Shown: positions 1 to 7,586 of the stretch, one piece after another
How positions within the stretch are numbered: the first letter of the stretch is position 1
Layout of the letters: every line of letters begins with the position of its first letter
Source of the DNA: a virus
Lineage: Duplodnaviria > Heunggongvirae > Uroviricota > Caudoviricetes
Reading direction: 5' to 3' (one strand)
Length of the DNA: 7,586 nucleotides
IMG/VR virus record: IMGVR_UViG_2778261594_000011
Location: 1-7,586 of that record
Translations under genes and position numbers: made by a program
The notes under the pieces: model-generated
What the model was told of the DNA's origin: nothing
The model's input: the letters and a program-made list of their open reading frames with translations, nothing else
Databases searched by the model: none

Positions 1-1158
1 ATGCCGAGAATAATCGAATTACGCCAGCAGAAAACCGCCATTAAAAATCAGATGCGCGACATGCTGGAGAACGCGGAAAAAGAAAACCGCAGCCTTAACG
101 ATGCTGAGGGCGCAAAATTTGACGAATTACGCGCTAAAGCTGAATCCCTCGATAAAGACATTTCCCGCCTTGAGGCCGTTGCAGACGAAGAGCGCAGCAA
201 GCCAGGTAAAAGCAGCCAGACCACTGACCCCGCCGAACTCCGCAACTACATTCTGACAGGTGAAACCCGCGCATTAAGTACAGGTGTCCCCGCTGATGGT
301 GGTTATACCGTTATCCCCGAACTGAACACCGAAATCATGCGAATGCTGGCGGACGAGTCCACGATGCGCCGCATCTGTACCGTGAAGAAAATCAGCAGCA
401 ACGAGTTTAAGCAGCTTGTTTCCGCTGGCGGTGCGACCGTTAACCACGGTGAAGAGGGTAAGGCACGCGAACAGACCAGCACCCCGCAGATTAACGAGGT
501 GAGCATCAAGCTGTATCCGGTATACGCCTATCCGCGCACCACACAGGAGATCGTTGATTTTTCCGATGTGGACATCCTTTCATGGCTGACGGGTGAGATT
601 GGCGACACCTTCACGGAAACCGAAGAAAGCGATCTGGTTGTGGGCGATGGTGACAAAAAAGCAAAAGGCTTTTTATCCGTACCCCGTGCAGAGAAGAACG
701 ACAAAGAGCGTGATTTTGGTACGTTGCAGGTAATTAAACCTTCCGAATCTCTGGCATGGACATCTGCGGACCCGCTGATCGACCTGAAATTTGCATTACG
801 TAAAAAATACCGCAAAAACGCGGTATGGGTGGTTAACTCCACGACGGCGGCAAAACTCCAGAAGGTGAAGAACGCGAACGGCGATTACATCTGGCGCGAC
901 CGTTTACAGGCGGGTGATCCTGATACGTTGCTGGGGCTTCCGGTGGAATATCTGGAATTTATGCCGGATAACGTTATCGCCCTGGGTGACTTCAAACGCG
1001 GTTATTACATCGTTGATCATGAAACGGGCGTGCGCACCAGACCGGACAACCTGACAGAGCCGGGCTTTATCAAAATTTTCACGCAGAAATATTTAGGCGG
1101 TGGCGTGGTGGATTCGAACGCGATCAAGATTCTGGAACTGCCGCAGGACGACGATTAA
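1..1158 (+). CDS. Major capsid protein, HK97 fold, with N-terminal coiled-coil delta (scaffold-like) domain
   Basis: 385-aa ORF. The N-terminal ~70 aa are charged and coiled-coil-like (ELRQQKTAIKNQMRDMLENAEKENRSLNDAEGAKFDELRAKAESLDKDISRLEA), typical of the HK97 gp5 delta domain; the rest has the HK97-family MCP pattern. A protease gene follows immediately. The ATG is at window position 1, so the true start and RBS cannot be checked. A strong terminator hairpin follows the stop. Confidence 0.85.
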   Translation: MPRIIELRQQKTAIKNQMRDMLENAEKENRSLNDAEGAKFDELRAKAESLDKDISRLEAVADEERSKPGKSSQTTDPAELRNYILTGETRALSTGVPADGGYTVIPELNTEIMRMLADESTMRRICTVKKISSNEFKQLVSAGGATVNHGEEGKAREQTSTPQINEVSIKLYPVYAYPRTTQEIVDFSDVDILSWLTGEIGDTFTETEESDLVVGDGDKKAKGFLSVPRAEKNDKERDFGTLQVIKPSESLAWTSADPLIDLKFALRKKYRKNAVWVVNSTTAAKLQKVKNANGDYIWRDRLQAGDPDTLLGLPVEYLEFMPDNVIALGDFKRGYYIVDHETGVRTRPDNLTEPGFIKIFTQKYLGGGVVDSNAIKILELPQDDD

Positions 1159-1164
1159 CAGCAC

Positions 1165-1197
1165 ACCGAAGGGGCTAAAAAGCCCCTTCTCTGTTTT
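1165..1197 (+). terminator. Rho-independent terminator-like hairpin after the capsid gene
   Basis: Stem GAAGGGGCT (1168-1176), loop AAAA, stem AGCCCCTTC (1181-1189), then the U-rich tract TCTGTTTT (1190-1197). It sits 7 nt after the capsid stop and before the protease RBS, so it is probably a partial terminator or attenuator. Confidence 0.6.
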
Positions 1198-1212
1198 ACA
1201 GGTGAAAAAATT

Positions 1213-1770
1213 ATGATGAGTATGGAAATCCGGTCATCGGAAATCACCACCAGCGGCAGCAACACGCTTACGGGCTACGTTGTTCGCTGGGATAACCTTT
1301 CAGAACTGTTATGGGGCGAATTTTACGAAAAATTCCAGCGAGGGGCGTTTACTGAATGGCTTGCGGCGGGTAATGACGTTCGCGGCCTGTATGAGCATGA
1401 CCACAGCATGTTACTGGGGCGTACCCGTTCCGGTACGCTGAAACTTGAGGAGGACGAAACAGGGTTACGCTTTGAACTGACCCCACCGGATACCAGCACA
1501 GGGCGGGATGTTATCGAACTGGTTAAACGTGGTGACATCTCGGGCATGAGTTTTGGCTTTCGTTCCCGTAAGGATGTATGGGATACAACAGTCGATCCAT
1601 GTGTGCGTACTGTACTGATAGCGGAACTGTACGAAATTACCGTCACATCCGTACCGGCTTACCCTGATTCCGGCGTGGAGCTGGCCCGACGTTCCCTGTA
1701 TGAACAGCACCCTGAAAAAATGCCTCGTGCGGATAATCGCCGCTGGTGGGCGGATTTAGCGGGGGTGTGA
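1213..1770 (+). CDS. Prohead maturation protease, HK97 family (peptidase S78)
   Basis: 185-aa ORF with the His motif LYEHDH and the Ser motif DISGMSFGF at the spacing expected for HK97 gp4-type proteases. RBS AGGTGA lies ~8 nt upstream. Three in-frame ATGs (1213, 1216, 1222) leave the exact start ambiguous. Confidence 0.85.
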   Translation: MMSMEIRSSEITTSGSNTLTGYVVRWDNLSELLWGEFYEKFQRGAFTEWLAAGNDVRGLYEHDHSMLLGRTRSGTLKLEEDETGLRFELTPPDTSTGRDVIELVKRGDISGMSFGFRSRKDVWDTTVDPCVRTVLIAELYEITVTSVPAYPDSGVELARRSLYEQHPEKMPRADNRRWWADLAGV

Positions 1771-1771
1771 T

Positions 1772-2983
1772 ATGTGGCCTTTCAGAAGAAAAAAAGAGCA
1801 TCGCAGCATAACGCTTGATGAATTTATGGCGCTGGCTGGCACGTCGAATACGGGGGCGGGTGAGTACGTATCATCGGGGACAGCAGAATCACTACCCGCC
1901 GTCATGAACGCCGTCGCGGTCATTTCTGAGGCGGTGGCTACTATGCCCTGTTACCTGTACCTGGTACGCAATGAGAAGGGGAAGGAGGCGCGGGAGTGGC
2001 TTGATTCTCATCCGGTCGATCACATTCTCAACGAGCGCCCGAACGCATGGCAGACCCCCTACCAGTTTAAGCGAATGATGATCCGCCACTGCCTGTTAAA
2101 CGGTAATGCTTATGCGGTGATTCAGTGGGGGCGTGATGGTTTTCCGGTGGCGCTGCATCCCTACCCGCCGCAGTCGGTGAACGTGGAGCAGACAGGGGAA
2201 CACAACTGGCGTTACTGCATCACTGACGCCTACACCGGAAACACCCGCAACTATCTCCCGTGGGAGGTTCTCCACCTTCGTTACTCCACGGATGACGGCT
2301 TTATGGGGCGCTCACCTGTAACCATCTGCCGCGAATCGCTGGGGCTTGGGCTGGCCCAACAACGCCACGGCGCGAGCGTGATGCGTGATGGCATGATGGC
2401 GGCAGGGGTTATCACGTCAGGCGAATGGCTGGACGGCGTGAAGGGCAAACAGGCATTAGCCGCACTGGAACGCTACAAAGGGGCCAGAAACGCCGGAAAA
2501 ACGCCCATTCTTGAAGGGGGTATGAGCTATCAGCAACTGGGCATGAGTAATCAGGATGCTGAATGGCTGGCCTCCCGTCGCTTCACCATTGAAGACATCG
2601 CCCGAATGTTCAACGTCTCGCCGATTTTTTTGCAGGAATACAGCAACAGCACCTACAGCAATTTCAGCGAGGCAAGCCGCGCATTTCTCACCATGACGAT
2701 GCGCCCGTGGCTGGCCAACTTTGAGCAGCAGATAAAAAACGCCTTACTGGTGGCCTCCCCTGTACCTGGTATCCGGTATCAGGTGGAGTTTGACAGCGCG
2801 GACCTGTTACGGGCCACACCTGGCGAACGCTTTGCCACCTATGAGCGCGGCATTAAATCCGGCGTTATGTGCCCGAACGAAGCCCGTGAACGTGAAGGAT
2901 TATCCCCGCGTGATGGTGGTGATGAGTTTAGCCAGGCCTGGAAACAGGAGGTCAAAATCAGCGAGGGAGACAAGCCGCAATGA
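1772..2983 (+). CDS. Portal protein, HK97 family
   Basis: 403-aa ORF with typical HK97-type portal sequence character (e.g. FTIEDIARMFNVSPIFL, acidic C-terminus). The start is 1 nt after the protease stop (GTGTGAtATG). Confidence 0.88.
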   Translation: MWPFRRKKEHRSITLDEFMALAGTSNTGAGEYVSSGTAESLPAVMNAVAVISEAVATMPCYLYLVRNEKGKEAREWLDSHPVDHILNERPNAWQTPYQFKRMMIRHCLLNGNAYAVIQWGRDGFPVALHPYPPQSVNVEQTGEHNWRYCITDAYTGNTRNYLPWEVLHLRYSTDDGFMGRSPVTICRESLGLGLAQQRHGASVMRDGMMAAGVITSGEWLDGVKGKQALAALERYKGARNAGKTPILEGGMSYQQLGMSNQDAEWLASRRFTIEDIARMFNVSPIFLQEYSNSTYSNFSEASRAFLTMTMRPWLANFEQQIKNALLVASPVPGIRYQVEFDSADLLRATPGERFATYERGIKSGVMCPNEAREREGLSPRDGGDEFSQAWKQEVKISEGDKPQ

Positions 2984-3318
2984 ATATAGGGCGACTTCGT
3001 GACAGGGTGACGGTTCAGACCCTGAAACAGTCCAGAGCCGTGACGGGGGAAATACTCCAGACGTGGGAGGACGGCCCCACACTCTGGGCGAGCGTGAACA
3101 TGGTGAGCAGCAAGGAGGCCATTTCATCGGGTGCAGAGCTGGCAATTGGTACCGTAAGGATCTGGATACGCTACCGGAAGGATATCAACGCCAGCAGCCG
3201 GATAAAGGTCAATACGGGGGCGATGGCGGGGCGCGTGCTGAATATCATCGGGCAGCCGCTGCCGGATGCAGCCATGACACGCCTTGAAATTCTTTGCCGT
3301 GAGGGCGCAGAAAAATGA
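2980..3318 (+). CDS. Head closure / head-tail joining protein (SPP1 gp16 / Phage_H_T_join-like)
   Basis: 112-aa ORF with the characteristic pattern RLRDRVTVQ ... W ... VNMVSSKEA ... VRIWIRYRKDI ... RI ... GR ... LEILCRE. The start overlaps the portal stop (ATGA). Confidence 0.75.
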   Translation: MNIGRLRDRVTVQTLKQSRAVTGEILQTWEDGPTLWASVNMVSSKEAISSGAELAIGTVRIWIRYRKDINASSRIKVNTGAMAGRVLNIIGQPLPDAAMTRLEILCREGAEK

Positions 3319-3608
3319 CAGAACTTATCACCCTGGAAGAAGTGAAACTCCATTGCCGCATCGATGGCGACGAGGAAGACCAGCTAATCAGCGGATACAT
3401 TGCCGCATCGCTTGAGGCGTGTCAGATACACATAGGCAGGCGCTTTGATGACGGGCTGGAGTTCACGCCAGCCATAAAGATTGGCTGCATGATGTTTATT
3501 GCTCACCTGTACGAGAATCGCCAGCTGGTCGCGGATAACACCAGAACACGCGTACCCCTGACGATAGGCGCACTCTGGACGGCTTACCGTGATGTGGGGG
3601 TGTACTGA
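3315..3608 (+). CDS. gp6-like head-tail connector protein
   Basis: 97-aa ORF with the N-terminal pattern LITLEEVKLHCRIDGDEEDQLISGYIAASLEACQ..GRRF typical of HK97 gp6-like connectors. ATGA overlap with the upstream gene. Confidence 0.75.
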   Translation: MTELITLEEVKLHCRIDGDEEDQLISGYIAASLEACQIHIGRRFDDGLEFTPAIKIGCMMFIAHLYENRQLVADNTRTRVPLTIGALWTAYRDVGVY

Positions 3609-4048
3609 TGCCGTGGCAACCGTTAAGGCGATGTACCGAACCAGGCTGCAACAGGCGCGTGAAGTCCGGCAAGTGTGAAGAGCACAGACGCAGCGCACGC
3701 CAGCAGCAGGACAGCCGGAGAGGCAGCAGCAGGGATCGAGGGTATACCAGGCAGTGGGAGAAATACCGCGCCATGTACCTTAATAAAAACCCGTTATGCG
3801 TGCGATGCCTTGAGAAGGGAATATATACGCCCGCCGTGGTGGTGGATCACATTATCCCCATCGATGGCGGTAATGATGTTCTGTTCTGGCCTGAATGGAA
3901 TCATCAGCCATTGTGTCAGGCGTGTCATAACCAGAAAACGAAATGGCTTGATCCGGCCACAAAAAACAAGCGTGCCGCTGGCGGATTCCGTGAGGAGGAA
4001 GAACGGGCAGCCAACCGCAATAACTGGATGTATGACGCTGATGAATGA
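3608..4048 (+). CDS. HNH endonuclease (terminase-associated, cos-packaging type)
   Basis: 146-aa ORF with a Cys-rich N-terminus (CTEPGCNRRVKSGKCEEH) and an HNH core (DHIIPIDGGNDV ... NHQPLCQACHNQKT). TGATG overlap with the upstream gene. It sits directly upstream of the terminase genes, as in HNH-dependent cos phages. Confidence 0.85.
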   Translation: MPWQPLRRCTEPGCNRRVKSGKCEEHRRSARQQQDSRRGSSRDRGYTRQWEKYRAMYLNKNPLCVRCLEKGIYTPAVVVDHIIPIDGGNDVLFWPEWNHQPLCQACHNQKTKWLDPATKNKRAAGGFREEEERAANRNNWMYDADE

Positions 4049-4214
4049 GCGGGAACAAAACCGTCTTATCCGTGGACTTATAAGGCAGCGTGACGCATGG
4101 AAGACACAGGAAACAGGGCATAAAAGCACAAAGGAAGCGCGAACAGGGCGCACCACAGCAACGCGATTAACTGACCGTGACCGCGAGGTGATGGAATGTT
4201 TCCGCAATCGCTGA

Positions 4215-4290
4215 TGATGCTGCCGGACGGGTGGGGGGGAGTTTTCAGGACAAACCCGCCCCCGTCCAGAACCGACCGCCTCCTCAAATT
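4215..4290. other. Candidate cos / terminase recognition region (GC-rich inverted repeat followed by an AT-rich tract)
   Basis: Inverted repeat GGACGGG (4226-4232) / CCCGTCC (4261-4267) flanking a G7 run and a C-rich run, followed by AT-rich sequence up to the terS start. It lies in the 289-bp HNH-terS intergenic gap, the position of cos in HK97-like genomes. Positional inference only. Confidence 0.25.
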
Positions 4291-4337
4291 TTTATGCACG
4301 GGAATTTTTTGAAAAATAATCTGGCGAAAAAATAAGC

Positions 4338-4694
4338 ATGGCAAGACCACCGAAAGCCCCCGCCTACCTGGATGATATCGCCGTGAAGCAGTGGCGGGAA
4401 AAATCGCGGCAGCTTGCGGAACGGGGAGACCTGACCCCCGCCGACTGGAGCAATCTGGAACTGTATTGTGTCAACTACTCCATTTACCGGAAAGCCGTTG
4501 CAGACCTTGCGGCGCGCGGGTTCAGCATTGTTAACAGTCAGGGCGGCGAGAGCAGAAACCCCGCATTAAGCGCAAAATCCGACGCTGAAAGAGTGATGAT
4601 AAAAATGGCCTCCTTGCTCGGTTTTGACCCGATAAGCCGCCGTAAAAATCCACCGGAAACAGAAGAAGAGGACGAGCTTGACCGCCTGGAATAA
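4338..4694 (+). CDS. terS: Terminase small subunit, P27 family
   Basis: 118-aa ORF with sequence character typical of P27-family TerS (KQWREKSRQLAERGDLTPADWSNLELYCVNYSIYRKA; acidic C-terminal tail EEEDELDRLE). It sits immediately upstream of, and overlaps, the large terminase gene. Confidence 0.8.
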   Translation: MARPPKAPAYLDDIAVKQWREKSRQLAERGDLTPADWSNLELYCVNYSIYRKAVADLAARGFSIVNSQGGESRNPALSAKSDAERVMIKMASLLGFDPISRRKNPPETEEEDELDRLE

Positions 4695-6339
4695 GTACGC
4701 AGAAGACGTAAAAACGGGCAAAATTCCGGCCTGTAAACGGCTGAAACAGGCCGTTAAACGGTACTTTTCGGACCTTGAAAGCCCCCTTTACACGTTCGAT
4801 CGTGAGGTTGTGGAGCGGTTTATTGCCTTTTCCAGGGTGTGCCCGCACGTAAAAGGGCCGATGCGTGGCAGACCCATTGAGCTGGAGCCGTGGCAGCAGT
4901 TCGCCTTTGCGTGCATCCTCGGCTTTAAGGTTAAGGCCACCGGACGGCGCAAATACACGAGCGCCTTTATCGAAGTGCCGCGCAAAAATGCGAAATCCAC
5001 GACCGCCGCGATTCTGGCTAACTGGTTTCTGATTATGGAGAACGGGCAGCAGGATATTTACACCGCAGCGGTGAGCCGTGACCAGGCGCGGATCGTTTTT
5101 GATGATGCGCGTCAGATGTGCCTTTTATCCCGACCGTTACGCAGGCGGGTGAATATTCAGGCCCACAAGGTGATGCACCCGAAAAGCAACAGCCTGTTAA
5201 AGCCGCTGGCAGCAAAAGCGGCAACCATCGAGGGAACAAACCCCAGCCTTTCCATCGTGGACGAATACCACCTACACCCCGATAACGGCGTTTATTCCGC
5301 GCTTGAGCTGGGGATGGGCGCACGTCCCGAAGGGCTGTTATTTGCCATTACCACATCGGGCAGTAACGTCGTTTCAACCTGTAAACAGCACTATGATTAT
5401 TGCTGCCAGATCCTGGACGGCGAAGAGGTCAACGATTCAATTTTTGTGCTGATTTACGAGCTGGACGACGAAAACGAGGTTGATGATCCGGCGATGTGGA
5501 TAAAGGCTAACCCTAACATCGATGTTTCCGTGGATCGTGAAAAACTGGCCTCAACCATCCAGAAAGCGCGGGGTATTCCGTCGCAATGGGTGGAGATGAT
5601 GACAAAGCGATTTAATATCTGGTGCCAGGGGGCTACCCCGTGGATGGGTAACGGCGCATGGGCTGAGTGTGCCGGAACGTTCACGGAGGAAGATTTACAC
5701 GGGCAGGAGTGTTACGCGGGGCTGGACTTATCATCAACCAGCGATATTTCCAGCGTGTGCTATGCCTTTCCGGTCGGTAAAAATATCATGCTGGTTTCCC
5801 GTCATTATCTGCCGGAGTTCCAGCTACAGAACCCCGCCAATAAAAACCGCGCTGTCTATCGCCAGTGGGCTAAAGCGGGCTGGATACGCACAACGCCAGG
5901 TGACTGCATTGATTACGACCGGATCAGAGATGACATCATGCAGGATGCGGAGAAATTTAATATCAGGCTGGTGGGCTTTGATACGTGGAACGCCACGCAT
6001 CTCAGGACGCAATTACAGGGGGCTGGTTTTGAGGTGGAGCCGTTCCCGCAAACCTACCTCAGATTCAGTCCGGCGGCGAAATCGTTCGAAGTTTTTGTTA
6101 ACCGCAGGGTGATTGTGCATCGTGGCGATCCGGTGTTGTCCTGGTCGATGAGTAACGTCGTGATGCAGAGTGACGCGAACGCCAATATCAAGCCGAACAA
6201 GAAAAAATCACCGAACAAGATAGACCCGAGCGTAGCGGCGCTGATGGCGTTTGGTACATTCCAGGCAGAGCATGAGGATTTTGCTTTTGATATAAGCGAC
6301 AGCCACCGCCAGAAACTGGAAGAATTTAGCGGGGTGTAA
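4678..6339 (+). CDS. terL: Terminase large subunit (ATPase + nuclease), Terminase_1 / HK97 gp2-like
   Basis: 553-aa ORF. Walker A-like IEVPRKNAKSTTAA and Walker B-like LSIVDEYH in the N-terminal ATPase domain, with an acidic-residue-rich C-terminal nuclease region. The ORF as drawn starts at a TTG (4678-4680), 17 nt inside the terS 3' end; the first in-frame ATG is ~61 codons downstream, after the conserved N-terminal W..Y..DV..GKI..C motif, so the non-ATG start is plausible but unproven. Confidence 0.88.
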   Translation: MTAWNKYAEDVKTGKIPACKRLKQAVKRYFSDLESPLYTFDREVVERFIAFSRVCPHVKGPMRGRPIELEPWQQFAFACILGFKVKATGRRKYTSAFIEVPRKNAKSTTAAILANWFLIMENGQQDIYTAAVSRDQARIVFDDARQMCLLSRPLRRRVNIQAHKVMHPKSNSLLKPLAAKAATIEGTNPSLSIVDEYHLHPDNGVYSALELGMGARPEGLLFAITTSGSNVVSTCKQHYDYCCQILDGEEVNDSIFVLIYELDDENEVDDPAMWIKANPNIDVSVDREKLASTIQKARGIPSQWVEMMTKRFNIWCQGATPWMGNGAWAECAGTFTEEDLHGQECYAGLDLSSTSDISSVCYAFPVGKNIMLVSRHYLPEFQLQNPANKNRAVYRQWAKAGWIRTTPGDCIDYDRIRDDIMQDAEKFNIRLVGFDTWNATHLRTQLQGAGFEVEPFPQTYLRFSPAAKSFEVFVNRRVIVHRGDPVLSWSMSNVVMQSDANANIKPNKKKSPNKIDPSVAALMAFGTFQAEHEDFAFDISDSHRQKLEEFSGV

Positions 6340-6352
6340 TGAGGTCAGCAGC

Positions 6353-6634
6353 ATGACAGAAGCCGAAATACTGCGATTAATCCGCCGCGTCTCTGGAATC
6401 AGCCAGCAGGCTGACGAACAGACCACGCAGCCGGACAGCGTGACAGCCGAAAATTATGCGCGTGTTGTTGCTGAGGTGATGCGCCGTGATGGTATCCAGC
6501 TTAATGATGCGGATATGCGCGACATACGGATCCGCGTTCTGGAAATGCTGGCCTACAATCGCCGCGTTGAACTGTATCGGGAGAAGGAGAAAATCACGTA
6601 TCACTGGAAGAAGCCGGAGCGGTTACGGCGGTAA
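6353..6634 (+). CDS. Hypothetical small protein (93 aa), last gene of the packaging operon
   Basis: ATG with a GAGGT RBS ~8 nt upstream, 13 nt after the terL stop. The protein is charged and Arg-rich with no motif I recognise. Coding status rests on ORF length, the RBS and operon context only. Confidence 0.5.
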   Translation: MTEAEILRLIRRVSGISQQADEQTTQPDSVTAENYARVVAEVMRRDGIQLNDADMRDIRIRVLEMLAYNRRVELYREKEKITYHWKKPERLRR

Positions 6635-6678
6635 CTTGTTGATTAAAAGGCGGCTCAATTCTGAGCTGGGTAGCTGAC

Positions 6679-6719
6679 GGCGGTAACTGTTTGATATTCC
6701 CGATAACGCAAAATTGCGC
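6679..6719. repeat. ~41-bp direct repeat, copy 1 (GGCGGTAACTGTTTGATATTCCCGATAACGCAAAATTGCGC)
   Basis: Direct sequence comparison with copy 2 at 6861-6904, which differs at a few positions. It contains the 17-bp motif gGTAACTnnTTGATATT and a short terminal palindrome (CGCAA-AA-TTGCG). Confidence 0.8.
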
Positions 6720-6774
6720 TGGCTACATCCCTCACATCTGAGGACTGTTAACCAGCAGGCCGGAATATATTCAC

Positions 6775-6797
6775 AAACTACGAAATTTTCGTAGTTT
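6775..6797. repeat. 23-bp near-perfect palindrome AAACTACGAAA-t-TTTCGTAGTTT (operator-like)
   Basis: 11-bp arms that are exact reverse complements around a single central base; located between the two ~41-bp direct repeats. Confidence 0.85.
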
Positions 6798-6860
6798 AAT
6801 TACTCGCCAGTTTATCGTTAACTAGTTGATATTTTCGGAAACCTCAATTTGAGGAAGTCG

Positions 6861-6904
6861 GCGCGGTAACTGTTTTATATTCCCGATAGCGCAAAAATGC
6901 GCGG
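6861..6904. repeat. ~41-bp direct repeat, copy 2 (GCGCGGTAACTGTTTTATATTCCCGATAGCGCAAAAATGCGCGG)
   Basis: Imperfect direct copy of 6679-6719. It is preceded by the palindrome CCTCAA-t-TTGAGG (6842-6854), which mirrors GCTCA-attc-TGAGC (6650-6663) ahead of copy 1. Related partial motifs occur at 6629-6645 (GGTAACTTGTTGATTAA) and 6820-6836 (GTTAACTAGTTGATATT). Confidence 0.8.
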
Positions 6905-6930
6905 TCGGGCAGAATGAGCACCACCTCAAT

Positions 6931-6966
6931 CGTGACGGAGAGTGACAACCAGTGACACACCGTGAC
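6931..6966. repeat. Four (C/A)GTGAC motifs at exact 10-bp spacing (helically phased iteron-like array)
   Basis: GTGAC at 6932, 6942, 6952 and 6962, followed by the palindrome ACGGTT-t-AACCGT (6973-6985). The reverse-complement motif GTCACT recurs at 7064-7069 and 7361-7366. Confidence 0.8.
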
Positions 6967-7019
6967 AAAAAGACGGTTTAACCGTTCATTAAAAATCGAC
7001 GTGATTTTGTGCTTTCCGG

Positions 7020-7038
7020 ATGACGTGGCCAACGTCAT
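7020..7038. repeat. Palindrome ATGACGT-ggcca-ACGTCAT
   Basis: 7-bp perfect inverted arms with a 5-bp spacer, followed by a T6 run; a related GACGTGAT lies at 7001-7010. Confidence 0.75.
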
Positions 7039-7354
7039 TTTTTAGCGAAAAATTCTGATTAAGGTCACTGGCTGAATGGTCATAATTACCACGCAGACCA
7101 TCGAGGCAACCATAGCGATCATCGTTACGGTTGGAGCTTTTCCGCCATTGGTGGAAAAGGTGCACATCTGGATCATCATTACGGTGATCAAGGGTATGTA
7201 AAACCCACCTGGCTGATTAAAGGTTAACCGGAAAAAAAATCCGGTAGCCCCGTTATGGGGATCCCCATATCGACAGCAACGCCTCCTTAAAATTACCCGC
7301 CTTTATATTTCTTGTGCCTATTTGTTCCACGTTGTTTCATACAGTGCACCGAAC

Positions 7355-7378
7355 GGTGTAGTCACTGGTGTAGTCATT
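7355..7378. repeat. Tandem 12-bp direct repeat GGTGTAGTCACT / GGTGTAGTCATT
   Basis: Two adjacent 12-mers differing at one base, ~75 bp from the putative element/host junction. Confidence 0.8.
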
Positions 7379-7421
7379 TTGCGAATTTTGGCACTTTCTC
7401 AGTGAAAATTGCTTAATTAAA

Positions 7422-7586
7422 TCAATGCACTATGCGGGATAAGTTATATATAACAGCAATAAATAATGCGAGAATAAACGGCACGATGATCTCGGCGGCA
7501 AAACGGATACCGCAGAGAATAATGACCAGCATTCCCAACATAATGACGATTTTTAGGCCATTGAGCGTGATGATCGGCTTTGCCAT
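7422..7586 (-). pseudogene. tqsA: 5' fragment of a tqsA (ydgG)-like AI-2 exporter gene, truncated after ~45 native codons
   Basis: The minus-strand ATG at 7584-7586 opens an ORF translating [45 protein letters not shown], which matches the TqsA N-terminus as I recall it, then continues IYNLSRIVH and stops at 7422-7424 (54 codons against ~344 aa for intact TqsA). The gene start is at the window edge, so the promoter and upstream region are not visible. Confidence 0.55.

Follow-up and report, generated by a model that had tools for sequence, protein, structure and literature searches.

Where does a satellite that encodes its own packaging enzymes carry the site at which its DNA is recognised and cut? 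The stretch that raises this question (hereafter the window) is the whole 7,586 nucleotides at positions 1 to 7,586 of the IMG/VR virus record IMGVR_UViG_2778261594_000011, assigned to the Caudoviricetes, and its gene content and order identify it as the module for capsid and packaging functions of a capsid-forming phage-inducible chromosomal island (cf-PICI). It encodes side by side an HNH endonuclease, a small terminase (TerS, gene terS) and a large terminase (TerL, gene terL). An earlier note, made from the letters of the sequence alone, had proposed a candidate cos (cohesive-end) site in the gap between the HNH gene and terS, with an inverted repeat of G and C runs followed by an AT-rich tract. 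The placement is supported by homology to experimentally mapped cos sites: we consider it likely, with a probability of about 0.8, that positions 4229–4320 are the cos site of the cf-PICI, homologous to those of phage HK97 and of phages SfV, SfI and ST64B. This region is built of a G-run with a short motif (block A), a variable spacer, a C-rich block (block B) and a block of A/T tracts on the terS side (block C), whose coordinates are given in the table below.

The reference points for this comparison come from phages whose DNA ends have been determined. The cohesive end of SfI was established by run-off sequencing of virion DNA as a 10-nt gap, 5'-TGCCCGCCCC-3' (PMC3636060), and HK97 DNA ends in 10-nt 3' overhangs, with cleavage stimulated by the HNH protein gp74 (PMC9410871). 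The HK97 TerS needs positions +15 to +29 relative to the cut, where position 21 is contacted specifically and +24 to +29 form an A-tract (PMC11331095); numbering the HK97 record accordingly, we reproduced T16, the C:G pair at 21 and a T-run at 24–30. A tblastn search with the window TerS recovered phages SfV, SfI, SfII, SfIV and ST64B at about 36% identity, with terS placed no more than a few hundred bases from the start of their records. The SfV and ST64B records close with an HNH endonuclease gene, and HK97 is arranged likewise. The SfV right and left ends, when joined, read ...GGGGAGGGGCGGGTCAAATCTCTGTGACCTGACGTCTTCCGGACTGCCCGCCCC up to the junction and ATCGTTTTTTTATACCCGCGAAAAATGAAATTT... 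beyond it; the corresponding HK97 sequences are ...GGGGGGGGGATCAAATCTTCAAAACCTTTGCCCCAAATGACCGCCGCCAAA and GTTTGAATTTAACGCTAACCCGATTTTTTTAG....

We aligned these junctions without gaps over -60 to +40, anchored on the mapped cuts, with position +1 of the window set at 4283, the C of CTCAAATTTTT. In five of the six comparisons the highest identity falls at offset 0, the background having a mean of about 26 and a standard deviation of 6 over all offsets from -40 to +40. Of 100 positions at offset 0, the cf-PICI family consensus matches HK97 at 47, SfV at 42 and ST64B at 44, and the window itself matches them at 40, 43 and 46, respectively. The 10-mers that fall in register are CGCCGCCAAA at the HK97 right end, TGCCCGCCCC in SfI, CGCCCGCCCC in the family consensus and CGACCGCCTC in the window, the last being identical to SfI at 7 of 10 positions; a longer stretch of ST64B (CCCGCCCCCTCGAATTTTTATAC) agrees with the family consensus (CCCGCCCCCTCAAATTTTTACGC) at 20 of 23. 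The earlier note had named HK97-like cos sites as the comparison to make and had expected physical ends within 4215–4290. The in-register alignment places the predicted cuts, at 4272/4273 and 4282/4283, inside that interval.

Beyond the cohesive end itself, the SfV, ST64B and HK97 junctions have a common layout: a G-run, a spacer of about 30 nt, a C-rich 10-mer, A/T tracts and terS. The G-run of 9–13 nt lies at -54 to about -42 in SfV, ST64B and the cf-PICIs (4229–4239 in the window) and at -51 to -43 in HK97; in the HK97 literature that we examined, no function is described for it. Downstream of the cut, the HK97 ACGC at +12 to +15 and its T-run match the family consensus, and the window has ATGC at +12 to +15. 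The conserved GCACGG at +14 to +19 and a T-tract at +23 to +28 give the window a layout that appears to be that of HK97. The region combines what is expected of an HNH-dependent cos site: a position between the HNH gene and terS, a cognate HK97-type TerL, TerS and HNH protein encoded alongside, and in-register homology to a mapped cohesive end and its flanks. A single base sets the predicted cohesive end of the window apart from that of a close relative in Escherichia coli O157 (locus L001; CGAACGCCTC), and both depart from the consensus at two or three positions; the overhang therefore varies between lineages.

To characterise the family, loci were collected through the TerS protein rather than through DNA, 43 of them from one-genome-per-species bacterial contigs and 80 from IMG/VR. 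All three blocks recur in these TerS-found loci, which come from more than 40 species. Ahead of terS, the DNA is organised in one and the same way in Enterobacterales (Klebsiella, Citrobacter, Enterobacter, Kosakonia, Pantoea, Erwinia, Serratia, Pectobacterium, Rahnella and others), Aeromonas and Pasteurellaceae. Among 37 distinct species-level loci, mean pairwise identity is 0.685 in block A, 0.445 in the spacer, 0.756 in block B and 0.804 in block C, the highest of all segments, as compared with 0.714 for terS coding DNA (31 loci). Conservation of the non-coding blocks is therefore on a par with that of the neighbouring gene, and in blocks B and C it is higher. Within block A, information content is high at -54 to -44. 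The AT-rich tract that the earlier note had marked at 4280–4335 proved to be real, and most of it (4283–4320) is the best-conserved part of the region.

Several observations on these blocks stand somewhat apart. The start of block C (4284–4294) holds the core TCAANNNNTTR of an integration host factor (IHF) site, which in Pasteurellaceae (L005, 3052–3064) reads AATCAAATTTTTA, a perfect WATCAANNNNTTR; in the aligned HK97 and SfV junctions this core is not kept, and we treat a role of IHF at block C as only a lead. In several Pasteurellaceae loci the cos blocks and terS are separated by inserted short hairpin repeats such as CCAATCCAATTTTGGTTCGG, and the genome of Pasteurellaceae bacterium Macca alone holds at least nine terS loci of this TerS family (L112–L119 and L128).

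Records derived from particles offer a view of DNA ends in relatives. GenBank LR881103 (LR881103.1, locus L002, "vB_KppS-Ant", 16.5 kb) is the cf-PICI of Klebsiella pneumoniae DSM 30104. The record is linear, opening 22 nt ahead of terS and closing beyond the small open reading frame (ORF) that precedes the cos blocks. Over its first 200 and last 120 bases it does not differ from the locus in ATCC 13883 (L088), a strain that we take to be the same as DSM 30104. Compared with that integrated copy, exactly 69 nt are missing (L088 2410–2478), corresponding to -31 to +38 around the predicted cut. Transposase libraries made from linear DNA would, we expect, lose some tens of bases at either end of the molecule. 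The particle DNA of vB_KppS-Ant, which is more than 99% identical to a region of the DSM 30104 genome, was sequenced with Nextera XT, and its authors presented it as a filamentous ssDNA phage (PMC8006926). For this same Klebsiella element, KpCIDSM30104, the DNA is reported to join into concatemers by its cohesive cos ends (bioRxiv 10.1101/2025.02.11.637232). LR881103 also annotates a 2.3-kb "tape measure" gene after terL, for which the window has no counterpart. Klebsiella phage P12620-1 (PQ569648.1; L004 and L293), a 106.5-kb "complete genome", carries a cf-PICI-like segment at its end (90.6–106.5 kb) that runs from the start of terS to the end of the small ORF, with the cos region missing; the record is probably a chimeric assembly, and we give it little weight. 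The IMG/VR loci found with TerS or the block C motif are nearly all prophage-derived, with the site internal. None of the 37 contigs in a single metagenome scan with the terS start ends at cos, an uninformative result for contig ends as a proxy for termini.

Several points weigh against reading 4229–4320 as the cos site with the cuts just given. Against HK97, the window scores 42 at offset +1 and 41 at +2, compared with 40 at offset 0, so that the cut is uncertain by 1–2 nt. Of the 10 bases of the predicted overhang, 3 are unlike SfI and 2 unlike the family consensus. The cut positions themselves are carried over by homology from phages with a TerS that is either about 36% identical (SfV) or shows no detectable sequence similarity (HK97). 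As regards conservation, the information-content profile was anchored on a DNA motif, which inflates it at +2 to +11 and in the T-tract, and the loci of the pairwise-identity set, despite being found by protein, were anchored with a relaxed motif, which leaves that set only partly free of bias. The gap in LR881103 could, finally, be an assembly or trimming artefact rather than a loss at physical ends.

With 4229–4320 read as the cos site, packaging can be pictured as follows. The element would replicate as concatemers, and its own TerS, the presumed reader of block C, would bind the A/T-tract DNA just upstream of terS, at a site predicted at about 4297–4311 (+15 to +29) that includes the T-tract at 4305–4310. 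TerS would position the HK97-type TerL, with the HNH endonuclease assisting, and the strands would be cut 10 nt apart in block B—the top strand at 4282/4283 and the bottom strand at 4272/4273—to leave a 3' overhang predicted as 5'-CGACCGCCTC-3' (4273–4282). Packaging would then run rightward, terS end first, and halt at the next cos. The upstream G-run, at its fixed distance (-54 to -44), is a third conserved element, possibly for cutting or termination; block A may be a cosQ-like or nuclease-positioning element. How far HK97 can guide the detail of TerS binding is limited. The window TerS had no significant match among solved structures, and the HK97 TerS has no Pfam match and no BLASTP similarity to the cf-PICI TerS; since the two sequences show no similarity, the HK97 TerS–DNA contacts are not transferable residue by residue. 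It is reasonable to suppose that the cos sequence sets packaging specificity. That the bases read by the HK97 TerS are not conserved in the cf-PICIs, and that the TerS proteins are unrelated in sequence, fits the reported exclusivity of helper and satellite packaging, described for the helper HK106 and the satellite EcCIEDL933 as mutually exclusive (bioRxiv 10.1101/2022.09.08.507074).

The earlier note had given weight to the G/C inverted repeat, and the repeat might itself be functional, as a hairpin, a cruciform or a symmetric binding site recognised and cut by the terminase or the HNH protein. It does exist, and its left arm shares bases with the conserved G-run; runs of four to six C occur in the spacer of many family members, and the cosN site of phage lambda has partial two-fold symmetry. 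The arms, 17 nt apart, are complementary at 11 of 13 positions, yet a repeat this good with a loop of at most 40 nt occurs in 22 of 300 dinucleotide shuffles of 4049–4337 (7.3%), and the DNA fold of 4215–4280 has an energy of -12.9 kcal/mol compared with -11.9 ± 2.0 for shuffles (z = -0.5). The right arm falls in the spacer, the least conserved segment, which has no C-run in relatives such as K. pneumoniae (L088), Aeromonas (L089) and Rosenbergiella (L090). Among 144 distinct family members, we saw no covariation between the arms, and the G-run region is no more complementary to the spacer in cognate pairs (6.78 of 10) than in non-cognate ones (6.79 of 10), which gives no sign of selection for arm pairing. 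The shuffles, the fold and the cognate comparison together lead us to reject a hairpin or cruciform, and the mapped SfI overhang corresponds to block B, downstream of the repeat. A functional repeat is accordingly improbable, and what the earlier note had seen, present as it is and short of significance, is best explained as a by-product of a G-run opposite C-rich DNA; the conserved C-rich element is instead 4269–4282, which includes the predicted cohesive end. We also considered the repeat as an intrinsic (rho-independent) terminator and rejected it: the loop is 17 nt long, no T-run follows 3' on either strand, and the fold is that of shuffled DNA.

Conserved non-coding DNA 5' of genes is often regulatory, and the blocks, directly 5' of terS and including A/T-rich DNA with a TTGAAA hexamer, might instead control terS and terL as a late promoter, activator site, attenuator or leader, with cos elsewhere. 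We regard this as quite improbable. Neither a sigma-70-like promoter on the + strand nor a terminator-like site was found in 4215–4337, and a search of Rfam gave no family at threshold and only a sub-threshold chance match to a miRNA. In several Pasteurellaceae loci about 90–200 nt of unrelated hairpin-repeat DNA part block C from terS, and since such extra DNA lies there in L120, L122 and L124, block C is not merely a terS leader. The same blocks flank the physical genome ends of HK97 and SfI, and the virion-derived vB_KppS-Ant record breaks exactly at them. A dual role, in which control signals share the DNA with cos, is conceivable. That the element is packaged by the headful (pac) route or through a helper cos, the region being a degenerate relic, we hold to be highly improbable: the pairing of an HNH protein and an HK97-type TerL is the hallmark of HNH-dependent cos packaging (PMC9410871), cf-PICI packaging does not depend on helper terminase genes (bioRxiv 10.1101/2022.09.08.507074), and cohesive-end concatemers have been reported for the related Klebsiella cf-PICI. 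A relic is further at odds with the strong purifying conservation of the blocks across genera, and the blocks differ from HK97 at TerS-site positions.

The gap that contains the cos blocks is shorter than the 289 bp of the earlier note. Most of that longer interval is occupied by a small ORF, which overlaps the end of the HNH gene and matches phrog_3173 over profile positions 1–57 of 57 (E 2e-29), with no match in a Pfam scan; the counterpart in the E. coli O157 relative is the RefSeq CDS WP_001196871.1. A C-terminal motif of its Arg-rich product, R[DE]RE..E[CA]FRNR*, persists across genera despite synonymous changes and differing stop codons. Heterozygosity summed per codon position over the last 20 codons of 65 distinct sequences is 5.0, 4.4 and 9.5, a coding signature in that third positions vary about twice as much as first and second. 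The real non-coding gap is consequently 4215–4337 (123 bp), which still makes it the largest in the operon. The phrog_3173 gene is found in most Enterobacterales cf-PICI loci, where its stop codon mostly stands at a constant 68 nt before the predicted cut; the Citrobacter (L091), Aeromonas (L089) and Pasteurellaceae loci lack it. In the window the gene also sits in the 200-nt bin of the module (1–6600) that is most divergent from the E. coli O157 element (86.5% identity). Loss of a hypothetical gene termed "1792" severely reduces transfer of EcCIEDL933 (bioRxiv 10.1101/2022.09.08.507074). Gene "1792" may or may not be this small ORF, the ORF after terL being the other candidate.

A G-run at a fixed distance from the cut is common to HK97, SfV/ST64B and cf-PICIs from three bacterial orders. 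A bolder reading is that it represents an undescribed essential third element of HNH-dependent cos sites, either a docking or measuring site for HNH–TerL or a cosQ-like termination signal, and that the phrog_3173 protein is a satellite-specific cos accessory factor that aids exclusive packaging. We put this forward as a tentative possibility, on the unlikely side.

The genes around the site complete the picture of the element. From left to right, and all on the + strand, Pfam annotation gives capsid, protease, portal, head closure, connector, HNH, terS and terL, which is the order of a proteobacterial cf-PICI (capsid, protease, portal, head–tail connectors, hnh, terS, terL) as described previously (bioRxiv 10.1101/2022.09.08.507074). 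Neither the window nor its homologous locus in E. coli O157 has tail genes. Over roughly its first 6600 positions, the window is 93–99% identical to this EcCIEDL933-type element of E. coli O157:H7, with the same genes and a TerS protein that is 100% identical, and the ORF 3' of terL is conserved there in the corresponding place. The integrase, alpA and replication module expected of a cf-PICI, which measures about 10–18 kb, would fall beyond the 7.6 kb of the window; upstream of its capsid gene, the O157 element carries a DUF927 primase-like gene, SSB and PerC. Transfer of EcCIEDL933 requires all of its packaging genes (bioRxiv 10.1101/2022.09.08.507074). Beyond about 6650 identity with the O157 element collapses and GC content falls to about 0.39–0.49 (6650–7586), suggesting that the element ends there and is integrated at a different place in the chromosome. 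On the - strand, a partial ORF resembling a membrane protein (7422–7586) runs off the end of the window.

Table. Genes, cos blocks and the inverted repeat in the window; positions with a sign count from the predicted cut.
Feature	Positions	Strand	Details
Major capsid protein	1–1158	+	
Prohead protease	1213–1770	+	
Portal	1772–2983	+	
Head closure protein	2980–3318	+	
Head–tail connector	3315–3608	+	
HNH endonuclease, packaging accessory nuclease	3608–4048	+	Pfam HNH PF01844, E 1.6e-8; phrog_144 HNH, E 3e-43
Conserved small protein gene, 57–60 aa	4032/4041–4214	+	phrog_3173; ATG at 4032 or 4041
Inverted repeat of the earlier note	4225–4267		Arms 4225–4237 GGACGGGTGGGGG and 4255–4267 CCCGCCCCCGTCC
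Block A, G-run plus TTTYMRRGAC	4229–4251	+	GGGTGGGGGGGAGTTTTCAGGAC; -54 to -32; family consensus GGGGTGGGGGAG(G)TTTYMRRGAC
Variable spacer, about 17 nt	4252–4268	+	-31 to -15; lowest information content of the region
Block B, C-rich	4269–4282	+	GAACCGACCGCCTC; family consensus G(G/A)MACCRCCCGCCCC
Block C, cosB-like part	4283–4320	+	CTCAAATTTTTATGCACGGGAATTTTTTGAAAAATAAT; family consensus CTCAAATTTTTAYGCACGGYRATTTTTTTGAAAATAA
terS, small terminase, P27 / Terminase_4 family	4338–4694	+	Pfam PF05119, E 1.3e-23
terL, HK97-type large terminase (ATPase + nuclease)	4678–6339	+	Pfam TerL_ATPase, TerL_nuclease
Conserved ORF 3' of terL	6353–6634	+	phrog_1561, E 1.5e-55; no Pfam match

A cos site between hnh and terS was to be expected in such an element, and the region is, from its alignment, a clear homologue of the HK97/SfV-type cos; the current understanding of HNH-dependent cos packaging is unchanged by it. 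In the literature that we searched, we found no mapped cos site of a cf-PICI. The notable points are the three-block layout, with a fixed-distance G-run common to phages and satellites, and the small conserved gene beside cos. The small capsids that cf-PICIs make for themselves take up no DNA but that of the satellite and are fitted with borrowed phage tails, which lets these elements move between species, and a cos described at the nucleotide level names the bases likely to be read by TerS (about 4297–4311), those of the cohesive end and the differences from an HK97-like helper. This offers a handle on packaging exclusivity and would allow the design of cos plasmids for cf-PICI-based DNA delivery, and a motif conserved in many genera could flag cos-terminated satellite genomes in virome data.

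The cos sites of SfI, SfV and ST64B are among the closest known systems to that of the window. In these phages too the site is flanked by the HNH gene on its left and by terS on its right, the G-run stands at -54 to -42, and the cohesive 10-mer is followed by (C/A)TC(G/A)-T-rich DNA, an A-tract and terS; their TerS belongs to the same Pfam family (about 36% identical to the window TerS for SfV, SfI and ST64B), and the window HNH protein is 37% identical to that encoded by SfV orf53 (E 4e-15). They differ in the spacer and at +12 to +30, where SfV has ATACCCGCGAAAAATG and the window ATGCACGGGAATTTTTTG, the A-tracts lying on opposite strands. At 118 aa, the cf-PICI TerS is also shorter than SfV orf1, which has 165 aa (record positions 68–562); unlike the cf-PICI, the phages have no small ORF between HNH and cos; and the host element here is a 15-kb satellite rather than a phage of 37–40 kb.

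HK97 shares with the window the three-part layout at the same distances (in HK97, G9 at -51 to -43, C-rich overhang CGCCGCCAAA, ACGC at +12 to +15 and T-run at +24 to +30), a cos between HNH and terS, and a homologous TerL, the window protein matching the HK97 structure PDB 6Z6D over residues 46–540 (E 6.4e-42). It differs in a TerS without sequence similarity, and the TerS-read bases T16 and C:G at 21 are not conserved in the cf-PICIs. Lambda cos (cosQ–cosN–cosB) likewise sets a nicking site between an upstream termination element and downstream TerS-binding bent DNA beside the small terminase gene, and so works in a way similar to that proposed for the window site, with no sequence similarity. 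Lambda has 12-nt 5' overhangs, needs no HNH protein and relies on Nu1 R-sites plus IHF; with its HNH gene and HK97-type TerL, the window falls outside the lambda type. HNH-dependent packaging also occurs in Staphylococcus, in phages phi12/phiSLT and in the cos-type Staphylococcus aureus pathogenicity islands (SaPIs), which are likewise satellites packaged by an HNH-dependent cos (bioRxiv 10.1101/2022.09.08.507074). By description these SaPIs are set apart in that they use the helper cos and the helper terminase, whereas the element in the window has its own terminase, its own HNH protein and, by our reading, a cognate cos.

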